DNA from: a virus
Reading direction: 5' to 3' (one strand)
UHGV virus genome: UHGV-1353415
DNA: 36,357 nucleotides
The translations under genes were made by a program, and so were the position numbers. The notes beneath the pieces are model-generated. The model was not told the DNA's origin. It was given only the letters and a program-made list of their open reading frames with translations, and made no database searches. Shown piece by piece: positions 20,058-35,696 of this stretch (positions are counted from its first letter, which is position 1; the number at the start of each line of letters is the position of its first letter).

Positions 20058-20402
20058 TTAGTCCTTGCGTAGCTCGCTGATTCTTCTGTAAGTCTCTGGT
20101 GCTTTGTTTCCGTGTATCTTCATTTCAGACTTCAACAGAGCAACGAGAGAATCCCATTCGTTGAGGATGCCTTTGAATGCCGGAACGCGCTTTGCAACCT
20201 TGTCGAATGAATCTCTGATTTCTGGAATCTGCTCAACAAGTGCAACGCATCGTCTGAAATCGGCTGCGTCATGTGGAGCACCGAAGCCATGACCATAGAT
20301 ATTCTTTTTCAGTCCACATGCGATTGAGGCAAGAGTTGCGCTACTGATGCCAACATCGCCAGTCGATTGCCATTTCAAAACTTTCATAGCCAAATCTGAC
20401 AT
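20058..20402 (-). CDS. hypothetical protein
   Basis: 114-aa ORF with SD GGAG 8 nt upstream; directly downstream of two hairpin terminators. Confidence 0.5.
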   Translation of the reverse strand: MSDLAMKVLKWQSTGDVGISSATLASIACGLKKNIYGHGFGAPHDAADFRRCVALVEQIPEIRDSFDKVAKRVPAFKGILNEWDSLVALLKSEMKIHGNKAPETYRRISELRKD

Positions 20403-20410
20403 TTCTTGTC

Positions 20411-20470
20411 TCCATAAAACAAAACTCGCCGTAGCGAGTTCAGATAAAAGAAAACCCGCACTCGGCGGGT
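20411..20470 (-). terminator. two tandem Rho-independent terminators (minus strand)
   Basis: Minus-strand hairpins ACCCGCCGAGTGCGGGT + TTTTCTTTT and ACTCGCTACGGCGAGT + TTTTGTTTT. Confidence 0.5.
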
Positions 20471-20750
20471 TCGCATTCGTTCAAATTGCGTTTACTTCTT
20501 GGCGTTCTGTTCATCCATATCGATATACCATGGGTTGCTTCCCTTGGGCATGTTTAACGACTGCTCGCGATAGTATCTGATGCGCTCCATGAAATACTCG
20601 CGTGAGTGCTCAGGTTGCTCTCATGATACCTGCTCAGTGATAACAGGCATGTTAAGGCGCTCTCTGTACTCCATGCCTGATGCTGCAAGGTCAACGTTTA
20701 CCTTGTTCTGTTTTTCTTTCGATTTCTCGGCGATGTTATGCCTGACATTG

Positions 20751-20993
20751 TCAACCCGCCTCCTTCTGAACATAACGGTTATAAATCAGTCCCTGAGGGC
20801 CATAAGGAAGCGGGATGTGCAACTCCTCTGGTTCAGAAACTATCCATTCCCCGGCCATCTCCGCTGGAGAGGTAATGATAAGTTGTTTGCTAATAAAAGG
20901 ACCACTCCTCTCAACAACAAGCTTACCATCTTCATTAATAAAAGCTTGGATGTCAGGTGTGCTTCCACACTTGGTGATGCAGCGTTTGAACAT
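20751..20993 (-). CDS. hypothetical 80-aa protein (accessory gene with own promoter)
   Basis: ORF MFKRCITKCG..; extended -10 promoter upstream and terminators downstream on the same strand. Confidence 0.5.
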   Translation of the reverse strand: MFKRCITKCGSTPDIQAFINEDGKLVVERSGPFISKQLIITSPAEMAGEWIVSEPEELHIPLPYGPQGLIYNRYVQKEAG

Positions 20994-21000
20994 TTTGTGT

Positions 21001-21008
21001 CCCCCCCC
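21001..21008 (-). repeat. G8 homopolymer (C8 on + strand) in the 5' leader / SD region
   Basis: Minus-strand ATGGGGGGGGACACAAA ATG; tract sits where the ribosome-binding site should be. Confidence 0.7.
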
Positions 21009-21025
21009 ATTTTATGTACGGGGTA

Positions 21026-21060
21026 ATTATAACACATTGAAATATAGTAATATTTGACGT
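21026..21060 (-). promoter_or_regulatory. extended -10 promoter (TGTTATAAT on minus strand) for the 80-aa gene
   Basis: Minus-strand TGnTATAAT at 21026..21034, about 33 nt upstream of the ATG; -35 weak. Confidence 0.4.
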
Positions 21061-21121
21061 AGATTTCTTTTGATCTATAAGCGGTTTTTTAATGCTTTTA
21101 AGTTATAAATACTTGTTTTCA

Positions 21122-21793
21122 TCACCCATCTTGCTGCGGTGCTACTATTGAAAAGTACTCACACCCTTTAGCCCAAATAGTTTTGATAGTTGTCCAACTG
21201 ACTGGAACCTTGATTTCGATTCTCCCGCTGCCGTCACAAGTTTCGCAATCATCATCACCAAAGCATTCCGGGCAGCTTATAAACGTAGTTTCTGAAAATT
21301 CACCGGATAGCACACCCTTAGCGCCGTTCTCAGCGGTTAGTTTCTTCGGCACTATAACCCAACCATCCGGAGTTACCGGAGAGTTGCCGGGTTCTTTAAT
21401 GTGCAAACGAGGCTCACCATCTTTTGGTTCAGGCCACTGACGTTCCATGTTGATCTTCAATTTATTTTCCATAGCAGCGGTAATTTCAGCATCACTGATA
21501 CCGGCACGGCGCTGTGCATCCCACAACAGGAACTGCATATCAGCCCACTCGCTGAGATCGTCAGGTTCGGCTGCGGCTTCCAGAGCCTCTTTTGAGAGGT
21601 GTTTCAGTGGACCAATGGGGCCAACGCAGCCAAATGTGGAGTCAGACCATTTGGCATGCTCGTGGCGAATCTGTTCGCGTTCCAGTGATGCCAGTGCAAT
21701 TCGTGCCAGTTCCATTTGTTCGCCACGAGTAAGCCCGTTTTCAAGCGGATTTTTAATGAATAATTCGATACGTTCTTTGGTAATAGTGGTCAT
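21122..21793 (-). CDS. MazG-like nucleotide pyrophosphohydrolase-domain protein with C-terminal Cys-rich (zinc-ribbon-like) region
   Basis: 223 aa; N-terminal ..EWADMQFLLWDAQRRAGISDAEITAAMENKL.. MazG-like pattern; C-terminal CPECFGDDDCETCDGSG. Confidence 0.45.
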   Translation of the reverse strand: MTTITKERIELFIKNPLENGLTRGEQMELARIALASLEREQIRHEHAKWSDSTFGCVGPIGPLKHLSKEALEAAAEPDDLSEWADMQFLLWDAQRRAGISDAEITAAMENKLKINMERQWPEPKDGEPRLHIKEPGNSPVTPDGWVIVPKKLTAENGAKGVLSGEFSETTFISCPECFGDDDCETCDGSGRIEIKVPVSWTTIKTIWAKGCEYFSIVAPQQDG

Positions 21794-21795
21794 AG

Positions 21796-21987
21796 CTATT
21801 TCACCTTAATCTCAACATTTCGCAGCTTTAGCTCTACTGGCAGGTCTGACTTTCCTGTTAATGCTAATGCGAGATTTTCTGGGGTAATGAGAGCAGTTAT
21901 TGCTTTCCCCATTGCCAGACGAATAATTATTCGTATTTCGCGATCGTCACATGCTCCTGGTCGAACGATTGATATTTGTCCGTCCAT
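21796..21987 (-). CDS. hypothetical protein
   Basis: 63-aa ORF tightly packed between neighbours. Confidence 0.35.
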   Translation of the reverse strand: MDGQISIVRPGACDDREIRIIIRLAMGKAITALITPENLALALTGKSDLPVELKLRNVEIKVK

Positions 21988-21988
21988 C

Positions 21989-22549
21989 TCACTCTCCTTT
22001 GATGCGAATGCCAGCGGAGCGGATTGCAGCGATGACTTCAGAAACTTTGTATGCCATTACCGTTTGGTAATCCTCGTGGAAATCTGTTCGATGAAGCATG
22101 CTGCTACGTTCCGGGAGCAGTATTTCCCGCGCTTCCAGTTCTGCAATGCGCTTCTCTGCGGCTTCCAGCTCAACACGCAGCTTCCCTACCGTTAGCGCAA
22201 TATCCTCGTTCTCCTGGTCGCGGCGTTTGATGTATTGCTGGTTTCTTTCCCGTTCATCCAGAAGCGCCAGCACGGTAGCTGGACTGGCTGCGGCGATGAA
22301 TTCAGCGTTGGCCTGCTGTTCCATTTGGAAATCTTCATCGAAACCGCTTTCTGGATGCGCTCCTTCAATTCTGCAAATGGGAAGATATCCAACAACTTCA
22401 CGATGAATTAGTGCATCACCAGCATCAAATCTCTCCTCTCCATATTCGAGCGACCACACACCACACGTTGCTTTTTCTGCCTTAGCACGCAGTGCCTGAT
22501 AGTCAATCTTGCTCACTGGTTGCCTCCTTTGCGAAGCTGCTCCGCACAA
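21989..22549 (-). CDS. Ea22/Ead-like protein (start uncertain)
   Basis: Coiled-coil-rich ORF; one of three adjacent paralogue-like genes. Confidence 0.45.
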   Translation of the reverse strand: MCGAASQRRQPVSKIDYQALRAKAEKATCGVWSLEYGEERFDAGDALIHREVVGYLPICRIEGAHPESGFDEDFQMEQQANAEFIAAASPATVLALLDERERNQQYIKRRDQENEDIALTVGKLRVELEAAEKRIAELEAREILLPERSSMLHRTDFHEDYQTVMAYKVSEVIAAIRSAGIRIKGE

Positions 22550-23157
22550 TGCAGCAGGGCGTCCGTCGCTTCTTTCACCGTAACGATGTCGCCATCGTCC
22601 AGCCCGGCAACCGTCGCGTCCTTAACGAACACCGAGCAAAGGTCATTAAACGCCTGCGCACGTACTTCAGCCAGGAGAGCGTCGGTGACCGGAGTTTCAG
22701 GAATCCGTCTCCTCATCCGTTCTATTGCATGATTGAACCCGAAATCTTCAGCAAGAGATACGTCATCCATATTGTCATTGTCGTCCTCAATATCCAGTGG
22801 TTCTGGAATTGCAGACTTTATTACCGCATTCTCCGCTGCCAGCGCCGCACACTTGGCCTCAAGAGCGGCAACCACTTCCTGATGGTCTTTGTACTTAACG
22901 TATGAGCCGGAGATGTCATCACCTTCGGTGTTTAGCCATGCGTCATTGCAATTCACTGCGTAGGTTCTGATGCTCATGCTGATGCTCTCCCGCCCCTGAC
23001 AGACGCCAGGCCAGTCAATAAAGTATCCGCAATGCCTACCCTCAGACGTGCGCGCAGGATAAATGCCGTTATGACCCGGCAAAATATATGCTACCCATTC
23101 ATCTTGCGTTGCCTGTTTCGCCGCCTCGCGCAGTTCTTTATAGTTAATTTCGCTCAC
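22513..23157 (-). CDS. Ea22/Ead-like protein
   Basis: 214 aa; C-terminus ..[25 protein letters not shown] shared with the next paralogue. Confidence 0.5.
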   Translation of the reverse strand: MSEINYKELREAAKQATQDEWVAYILPGHNGIYPARTSEGRHCGYFIDWPGVCQGRESISMSIRTYAVNCNDAWLNTEGDDISGSYVKYKDHQEVVAALEAKCAALAAENAVIKSAIPEPLDIEDDNDNMDDVSLAEDFGFNHAIERMRRRIPETPVTDALLAEVRAQAFNDLCSVFVKDATVAGLDDGDIVTVKEATDALLHCAEQLRKGGNQ

Positions 23158-35540: not shown

Positions 35541-35615
35541 GGGTCAGTCGTATAAAGGTCATTACGGAAGGCTGTTAACCTTCTTATCGTGGTTCGAGTC
35601 CACGCTGTCCCGCCA
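35541..35615 (+). tRNA. tRNA-like gene, anticodon GUU (Asn-like), imperfect acceptor and D stems
   Basis: Hand-folded cloverleaf: anticodon arm GAAGG-CTGTTAA-CCTTC, T arm CGTGG-TTCGAGT-CCACG, 3' CCA present; one acceptor mismatch. Confidence 0.45.
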
Positions 35616-35620
35616 AACAT

Positions 35621-35696
35621 GCTGGTTTAGCTCTAATGGTAGAGCAGTCGCCTTGTAAGCGAATGGGTAGCGGTTCAAGTCCGTTAACCAGCACCA
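35621..35696 (+). tRNA. tRNA, anticodon UGU (Thr-like)
   Basis: Hand-folded: acceptor GCTGGTT/AACCAGC, D arm GCTC-TAATGGTA-GAGC, anticodon loop CTTGTAA, T arm AGCGG-TTCAAGT-CCGTT, discriminator A, CCA. Confidence 0.6.

Follow-up and report, generated by a model that had tools for sequence, protein, structure and literature searches.

A mosaic early-left prophage protein combining a predicted MazZ-like pyrophosphohydrolase domain with a widely shuffled four-cysteine module

Results

Three Modules in One Reading Frame

We analyzed an open reading frame (ORF) of 223 amino acids on the minus strand of the virus genome UHGV-1353415, whose 36,357 nucleotides constitute the window of this study. The ORF is assembled from three parts, an N-terminal leader, a central domain of the PF04447 family (formerly DUF550), and a C-terminal module that carries four cysteines (Table 1). 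The preceding small ORF (21796-21987) ends with a TAG stop codon at 21796-21798, 2 nucleotides before the ATG of the 223-residue ORF, a spacing that makes the gene part of a compact operon. The separate character of the leader is seen in Escherichia coli matches that span nucleotides 1-114 of the ORF alone. Residues 1-49 match phrog_3323, phrog_10451, and phrog_660, and the PHROG matches were to families of "unknown function" only.

Table 1. Coordinates of the 223-residue ORF, its modules, and its predicted functional residues
Feature	Position	Strand	Remarks
Complete mosaic ORF of the exo-xis/"ea" region (leader, DUF550, and cysteine module)	21122..21793	minus	223 amino acids, ATG start, stop codon included (ORF list)
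Shine-Dalgarno sequence AAGGTGA	21801..21807	minus	7 nucleotides upstream of the ATG, read directly from the sequence
Leader module, residues 1-41 (MTTITKERIE...ELARIALASLE)	21671..21793	minus	Shuffled; occurs alone before other modules, including directly before the cysteine module
PF04447 (ex-DUF550) MazZ-type all-alpha nucleoside triphosphate pyrophosphohydrolase domain, residues 42-137	21383..21670	minus	Predicted from Pfam and profile homology
Four acidic metal ligands (predicted), E69-x2-E72 ... E82-x2-D85 (EALEAAAEPDDLSEWAD)	21539..21589	minus	Aligned to MazZ E35/E38/E50/D53
Predicted pocket and phosphate-stabilizing residues, K111-x3-N115-x2-R118-x-W120 (KLKINMERQW)	21434..21463	minus	Spacing as in MazZ K76/N80/R83/W85
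Conserved inter-module linker and recombination joint, residues 136-146, GNSPVTPDGWV	21356..21388	minus	DNA comparison of PSJ-36 and SCU-101
Autonomous small domain, residues 147-218 (about)	21140..21355	minus	Motif VPxxLTAENGAKG-LSGEF, beta-strand, cysteine loop, beta-strand, helix WTTIKxIW
Four-cysteine knuckle pair, residues 174-190, CPECFGDDDCETCDGSG	21224..21274	minus	Second copy is an exact DnaJ-type CxxCxGxG; presumed zinc site at the hairpin tip

The Central Domain Belongs to the MazZ-Type Pyrophosphohydrolases

The central domain matches the Pfam family PF04447 (dATP-dGTP_PPHyd) with 142.8 bits against a cut-off of 23 (E = 4.2e-42), over positions 1-96 of the 97 in the profile. This is the sole Pfam family found in the whole protein, and no canonical MazG family in Pfam was matched at E ≤ 1. 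When the single sequence was searched against the sequences of the PDB, the match to MazZ of cyanophage S-2L (7ODY) was weak (E = 0.45); a profile built from the domain and its homologs from Mycobacterium, Burkholderia, Pseudomonas, Flavobacterium, and Klebsiella phages matched the same structure significantly (E = 2.6e-6).

In MazZ, residues E35, E38, E50, and D53 are Mn2+ ligands, residues K76, N80, R83, and W85 line the pocket from the partner chain, with the arginine next to the beta-phosphate, and D60 contacts the 2-amino group of guanine, the enzyme being specific for (d)GTP (PMC8342488). All the metal ligands and pocket residues have counterparts in the 223-residue protein (Table 1). 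In addition, H131 aligns to MazZ H95, a further pocket residue from the partner chain, and D92 to MazZ D60, and the position of MazZ K31 is occupied by His65. The catalytic residues do not vary across five distant phage lineages or in an alignment of seven lineages, and at least 122 of 125 collected DUF550-bearing homologs have them; among these homologs the KLKINMERQW set is invariant or nearly so. The same nine residues are identical in a protein of Acinetobacter phage SH-Ab 15497, to which hhalign aligned the DUF550 profile with a probability of 96.5% (E = 7.8e-10). The gene for this protein lies between purZ and datZ and encodes PF18909 plus PF04447; it was not listed by tblastn from the DUF550 domain, and the link was made by hhalign with the fetched gene.

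Pyrophosphohydrolase activity on dGTP and dATP has been reported for DUF550-containing and MazZ proteins (PMC12884076; PMC8342488), and the SH-Ab 15497 protein is described as a dATP/dGTP pyrophosphohydrolase (PMC12884076). By homology, then, the central domain is a PF04447 member that is predicted to work like MazZ, yet it is no MazZ in the sense of a Z-genome pathway. This enzyme part is ordinary and its family already annotated. An earlier note on this DNA, made without database searches, had proposed a MazG-like pyrophosphohydrolase in the N-terminal half of the protein. The domain assignment is borne out, with the catalytic residues in place; the MazG-type sequence pattern is also there, but it sits in the middle of the protein, behind a separate shuffled leader.

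The same note had linked such proteins to the manipulation of nucleotide pools or alarmones. In the alarmone case the MazG-like domain would degrade (p)ppGpp or a nucleotide second messenger and blunt abortive-infection responses of the host, as proposed for Atd1, a phage MazG-like pyrophosphatase for which ppGpp hydrolysis and protection against TIR-STING toxicity have been described (preprint, bioRxiv 10.1101/2022.06.09.495361). The gene does lie in an early accessory region that also holds the anti-restriction gene ral. However, the domain falls into PF04447 and not into a canonical MazG family, its significant structural relative is the (d)GTP-specific MazZ, and D92 aligns to the very residue with which MazZ reads the guanine 2-amino group. 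A cyanophage MazG has moreover been reported to be unable to hydrolyze magic-spot nucleotides (PMC6850273), and a search of the PADLOC and anti-defense families returned no meaningful match. We consider an alarmone hydrolase quite improbable and do not favor the idea, the closest characterized relatives being enzymes that act on dGTP and dATP (PMC8342488; PMC12884076).

The C-Terminal Module Is a Small Domain with a Four-Cysteine Loop

The C-terminal module matched no Pfam, NCBIfam, or PADLOC family and no fold in the PDB, and a full-text literature search with its signature peptides found nothing. Its cysteines fall into two pairs, CPEC (residues 174-177) and CETC (residues 183-186), within the motif CPECFGDD-D-CETCDGSG, in which CETCDGSG fits CxxCxGxG exactly and CPECFGDD is a degenerate version. 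None of the four cysteines varies among 140 aligned cluster representatives with the module, 128 of which have the exact pattern C..C.G...C..C.G.G. The earlier note had read this part as a cysteine-rich, zinc-ribbon-like metal-binding module, and the conserved four-cysteine module is indeed probably metal-binding.

Prediction of the module by AlphaFold2 (AF2) with a diverse alignment gave a confident model, with a predicted local distance difference test score (pLDDT) of 86.2. Numbered so that 1 is residue 135 of the protein, the model comprises a helix (24-28), a strand (33-39), the cysteine loop (40-56), a second strand (57-63), and a helix (66-82); the inter-module linker is modeled with low confidence. 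A zinc ribbon has its two CxxC knuckles on separate beta-hairpins, with a three-stranded sheet around the zinc. Here both CxxC pairs occupy one 17-residue loop, and the ribbon label fits loosely.

The closest resemblance is to the cysteine-rich domain of DnaJ, and it holds at the level of the motif only, as judged from the profile comparisons. DnaJ itself has four CxxCxGxG motifs that form two zinc centers, in a protein with a J domain. The module profile, searched against the sequences of the PDB, found DnaJ zinc-finger domains as its best matches (DnaJA3 and E. coli DnaJ, E = 0.25 and 2.8). Across the family, PF00684 was matched by 5 of 68 members (best E = 5e-5) and Anti-TRAP, weakly, by 16 of 68, and the weak matches of the module comprise DnaJ zinc fingers, Anti-TRAP, and BSD2_CRD; the module of this protein gave no match to PF00684 at E ≤ 10, and no J domain was found in the 223-residue protein or in the 140 module carriers. 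A HMMER alignment to DnaJA3 had suggested a more extended homology, running from a strand of C-terminal domain I through the zinc finger to the return strand. We rejected this candidate, as the hhalign alignment to E. coli DnaJ covers the 15-column knuckle only, with a probability of 16%.

DnaJ-type zinc knuckles are protein-interaction modules. The module is acidic, with an isoelectric point of 4.6 (median 4.7 among stand-alone members), a character that fits protein binding better than nucleic-acid binding. Among distant relatives the best-conserved elements are the flanking motifs MPxxLTAENGAKAALIGEF and VxWTTIKxIYxAAV, and not the cysteines. Relatives that lack the cysteines (P0422, P0429, P0431-P0435) keep LTAENGAK...GEF and W..IK.IY and have a shorter hairpin loop. 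Because the flanking motifs persist in these relatives, the presumed zinc knuckle would be an optional insert in the module fold.

The Module Is Common and Occurs with Many Partners or Alone

A phmmer search of 1.84 billion cluster representatives (50%-identity clusters) with the module matched 1314 representatives at E ≤ 1e-3 and 252 at E ≤ 1e-30. The last 89 residues, searched alone, recur with 75-100% identity at the C terminus of proteins of 115-155 residues whose N termini differ, some of them named Ead/Ea22-like and some "molecular chaperone DnaJ." Partner domains in the 140 module representatives are PF04447/DUF550 (6), Ead_Ea22 (7), DUF551 (7), Lar (2), and DUF3850/ASCH (1), and most of the representatives are without any Pfam domain.

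Distant homologs were found in Serratia, Pseudomonas, and Vibrio phages and, used as seeds, gave 55 further relatives, of which 52 were parsed. Half of these (26 of 52) are stand-alone proteins of no more than 100 residues (76-100). In phage contigs, the stand-alone members are surrounded by small early genes, none of which is a constant and informative neighbor. In a Pseudomonas phage the module is N-terminal. This range of partners, together with the stand-alone forms, argues that the module is independent. On the strength of these searches, we regard it as an undescribed yet common and widely shuffled phage domain, and not as a dedicated regulator of the enzyme.

Two further observations concern its relatives. 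In P0260, P0296, P0300, P0321, P0359, and P0365 the cysteine module is matched in two separate stretches, suggesting two module copies. In Vibrio phage D93 (L004:890-2002), a distant relative of the stand-alone type lies two genes downstream of an annotated nucleoside triphosphate pyrophosphohydrolase gene, a proximity that could be coincidence or a loose genomic association.

Enzyme Domain and Module Meet at a Recombination Joint

Two E. coli chromosomes bracket the joint. E. coli PSJ-36 is 99.3% identical over 20700-21388, that is, over the downstream flank and the whole cysteine module, beyond which its sequence departs and becomes an Ead/Ea22-like gene. For E. coli SCU-101, the match (97% identity) takes in the leader and DUF550, from 21793 to 21361, and gives way to another module ending in DUF551. 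The stretch common to both matches is 28 bp long (21361-21388) and encodes GNSPVTPDGW. As read from these DNA comparisons, recombination demonstrably took place at this 28-bp linker, which joins DUF550 and the cysteine module.

Module boundaries throughout the family repeatedly show the linker GNSPVTPDGW or another one, such as ELARIALASLE. In the protein sets the parts combine as leader-DUF550-cysteine module, other-DUF550-cysteine module, leader-DUF550-other, leader-cysteine module, and other-cysteine module, and extra modules stand between DUF550 and the cysteine module in P0126, P0173, and P0203. At least 80% of the protein is covered in 2 of the 512 phage records that match it. Among complete E. 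coli genomes, at least 80% of the ORF is present in one piece in 18 of 5426, and parts of it in 1195. Ea22-type exo-xis proteins are known to carry a variable repertoire of C-terminal domains (PMC7093339; PMC10834534), and the shuffling observed here matches that description.

The commonest alternative ending of the leader-DUF550 protein is that of P0193 and its relatives (198 amino acids), which starts with PDGWVMVPKELTPEMM... after the same linker and ends in ...FWNVAVSAAP. It loosely echoes the start (VPKKLTAEN) and the end (IWAKG...VAP) of the cysteine module and, on this resemblance, may be a very distant variant of the cysteine-module fold without the cysteines.

The earlier note had suggested that the module was added for targeting or regulation. 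The fusion would then be a functional unit, whose cysteine module localizes the pyrophosphohydrolase or switches it, either by binding a partner from the host or the phage or by sensing metal or the redox state. Salmonella, Citrobacter, and Klebsiella have the same fused architecture, as do phages ST101-KPC2phi6.3 and 118970_sal3, and this recurrence would suit such a unit. The C-terminal domains of Ea22-type proteins have also been speculated to act on host processes (PMC7093339), and the module nearly always follows something else, with 116 of the 128 exact-motif representatives ending 30-39 residues after the motif, as a generic adaptor would. Set against a regulated enzyme are the 6 in 140 module carriers with DUF550 and the rarity of the whole protein in the phage records and E. 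coli genomes counted above. Both parts are, moreover, known on their own (Mycobacteriophage Mindy gp111 is a DUF550 protein of 105 residues, and the C-terminal module occurs as proteins of 76), other modules can intervene between them, and the joint is a recent recombination site whose flanks are 97-99% identical in different genes. We judge a regulated fusion unlikely; a generic adaptor or targeting role of the module is still compatible with these data.

The Gene Lies in the Early-Left Region of a Lambdoid Prophage

The chromosome of E. coli 2016C04-116 (NZ_CP131685.1) matches the window with 100% identity. In its annotation the host his operon and sbcB come first, and next to sbcB begins an integrated lambdoid/P22-like prophage. 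The prophage genes run from the integrase through an excisionase-like helix-turn-helix gene and small genes, including a DNA polymerase III theta pseudogene, to the 223-residue ORF, after which come two Ead/Ea22-like genes, recT, ral, the cI/cro switch, and the replication, nin, lysis, and terminase genes. Because of these neighbors (int, xis, the Ead/Ea22-like genes, recT, ral, and cI/cro), the ORF is placed in the early-left region, and on gene order we assign it to the non-essential exo-xis or P22 "ea" region. Its residues 1-155 have 60% identity to P22 EaA (tblastn). No further copy of any of the three modules was found within the window.

The two tandem Ead/Ea22-like genes directly upstream, at 21989-22549 and 22513-23157 on the minus strand, match PF13935 with E = 1e-30 and 9e-24. 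The first of them is called "partial" by PGAP; its last residues, ...IRIKGE, show the K/RGE terminal motif that publications on Ea22 have pointed out. On the other side of the ORF, a 128-bp AT-rich spacer (20994-21121) contains one sigma-70-like match, on the opposite strand (21037-21065); the spacer is kept at 99% in E. coli PSJ-36 along with the cysteine module. Beyond it lies the theta (HolE-like) gene (20492-20773, minus strand), a pseudogene with an internal stop according to RefSeq, of which E. coli PSJ-36 has the same disrupted copy. Two back-to-back, terminator-like GC-rich hairpins with T tracts (20422-20472, minus strand) separate the theta pseudogene from an ORF of 114 amino acids (20058-20402); the early-left transcription unit may end here, or the hairpins may delimit a moron. 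The late region of the prophage contains a pair of tRNA genes, tRNA-Asn (GTT) and tRNA-Thr (TGT), at 35541-35696, upstream of the lysis genes.

In NZ_CP131685.1, PGAP cuts the ORF into a CDS of 182 amino acids, named "DUF550 domain-containing protein" and starting at residue 42, and an upstream pseudogene fragment marked "incomplete." This split, the decay of neighboring genes (the theta gene with its internal stop and the partial Ead/Ea22 gene), and the rarity of the exact architecture in E. coli, with 18 of 5426 genomes, would be expected if the ORF were an accidental in-frame join, a non-functional recombination chimera or a decaying gene. However, the frame is uninterrupted behind a canonical Shine-Dalgarno sequence and ATG, and the catalytic residues and cysteines are all intact. 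The 223-residue cluster (P0123, 98% identity) moreover has 226 member sequences, which argues that the full ORF is a recurrent real product. PGAP also splits a clearly continuous ORF in E. coli SCU-101 (L017:300-1140), where a leader-DUF550-X-DUF551 frame of ~275 amino acids is annotated as three pseudogene pieces. The splitting of continuous mosaic ORFs by RefSeq/PGAP thus looks like a systematic annotation artifact of module shuffling, at least from the sequences compared here, and a non-functional chimera is very improbable.

Discussion

Considered as a whole, the analysis leads us to a model that we think is probably right, although well short of certain: the gene would encode a "beads-on-a-string" early prophage protein that combines a catalytically competent, MazZ-like purine (deoxy)nucleoside triphosphate pyrophosphohydrolase with an independent, probably zinc-stabilized, protein-binding module. 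The enzyme domain would dimerize like other MazG-fold proteins and, with Mg2+ or Mn2+, would convert purine (deoxy)nucleoside triphosphates (dGTP, dATP, or damaged analogs) to the monophosphate and pyrophosphate. Early after induction, this hydrolysis would adjust or clean the nucleotide pool for phage replication. The four cysteines would bind one Zn2+ and stiffen the tip of the hairpin, and the acidic C-terminal module would act as a protein-binding unit independently of the enzyme, not as its regulator.

Several observations weigh against this model. To our knowledge, activity has been reported for relatives and for no DUF550 protein of an ordinary A-T-G-C phage, and the annotated prophage region contains no purZ, datZ, or dpoZ, there being no adenylosuccinate-synthetase-like or HD-phosphohydrolase gene. 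Members of the MazG/HisE superfamily are four-helix, all-alpha proteins whose active sites lie at the interfaces of dimers or tetramers. The full-length AF2 model of the 223-residue protein, made from a 52-sequence alignment, has a mean pLDDT of 50.7 and is too poor for a fold search; its helices, at 23-54, 68-73, 81-96, and 101-117, are of low confidence. The MazG fold expected by the earlier note is therefore drawn from sequence-profile homology to the solved 7ODY structure and not from a model of the protein itself. The protein assayed from SH-Ab 15497 has two domains, and the family of the other one, DUF5664, hydrolyzes dATP, dGTP, and dUTP alone (PMC12884076), so for DUF550 by itself the expected substrates follow mainly from the resemblance to MazZ. 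As for the module, four or more cysteines occupy the central loop in 45 of the 52 distant relatives, and the other 7 have none or one and a shorter loop. Finally, DUF550 and the cysteine module are also found together in Salmonella (P0151/P0153), Citrobacter (P0165/P0170), and Klebsiella (P0220), at 74-85% identity, and with this recurrence across genera the linkage itself could be selected.

A further possibility shifts the weight to the C-terminal part. Its ~75 residues would be an undescribed autonomous domain family that serves as a host-protein-binding adaptor or inhibitor, conceivably against DnaK/DnaJ, and is fused combinatorially at recombination linkers to diverse exo-xis effectors. 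The scaffold of such a family would be MPxxLTAENGAKAALIGEF ... VxWTTIKxIYxAAV, usually with the four-cysteine knuckle at the hairpin tip, and it would extend over enterobacterial, Serratia, Pseudomonas, and Vibrio phages. Were this so, the DUF550 enzyme would be one of many cargoes brought to a common host target. We put this adaptor family forward only tentatively, as an unlikely explanation.

The model of a competent MazZ-like enzyme strung together with an independent module introduces no new kind of system, since each of its elements is already known, from the enzyme family and the mosaic exo-xis region to the DnaJ-type knuckles. It does tie functionally blank and very common prophage genes (EaA, or "DUF550 domain-containing") to the characterized MazZ and SH-Ab 15497 enzyme, with every catalytic residue present, and it predicts that, soon after induction, ordinary temperate enterobacterial phages produce a purine (d)NTP pyrophosphatase. 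The analysis also delimits a small, unannotated, shuffled cysteine-knuckle domain that could enter domain databases, and it suggests that automatic annotation systematically breaks such mosaic genes into "pseudogene" fragments.

Comparison with Known Systems

MazZ of S-2L (7ODY) and the SH-Ab 15497 enzyme share with the 223-residue protein the four acidic ligands, the K-x3-N-x2-R-x-W motif, and the aspartate aligned to D60. They differ in setting, the SH-Ab gene lying next to purZ and datZ and this prophage being without purZ, datZ, and dpoZ, and in architecture: in place of the DUF5664 of the SH-Ab enzyme there is a different N-terminal leader, and the C-terminal cysteine module is unrelated to either protein. 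Atd1 is likewise a phage-encoded all-alpha enzyme of the nucleoside triphosphate pyrophosphohydrolase superfamily from an accessory region, but its catalytic domain is canonical MazG, whereas the 223-residue protein belongs to PF04447 and has nothing that points to a ppGpp substrate.

With the cysteine-rich domain of DnaJ, Anti-TRAP, and BSD2, the module shares the CxxCxGxG motif (CETCDGSG). Where DnaJ has four motifs and two zinc centers, however, the module has a single knuckle pair; it also comes without a J domain, and its cysteines are dispensable in some relatives.

The nearest relatives by position and architecture are P22 EaA and the "DUF550 domain-containing" or EaA proteins of lambdoid prophages and Klebsiella Webervirus phages, which occupy the same early-left, non-essential position; a search of the literature on EaA and P22 found only incidental mention. 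Leader and DUF550 are common to EaA-type proteins, and several proteins of Escherichia and Salmonella phages are 92-96% identical over stretches that range from residues 1-148 to 1-156. Most EaA-type proteins end differently, for example in DUF551 or as the 198-residue form P0193.

The 223-residue ORF has no PF13935 match, unlike Ea22/Ead, and neither the sequence nor the fold searches with the cysteine module brought up the solved C-terminal domain of lambda Ea22. Identical or near-identical cysteine modules do stand behind Ead/Ea22-like N termini (P0005; PSJ-36) and are annotated "Ea22" in phages. As in the Ea22/Ead-type proteins of lambda and Stx phages, the cysteine module is one of several interchangeable C-terminal domains.

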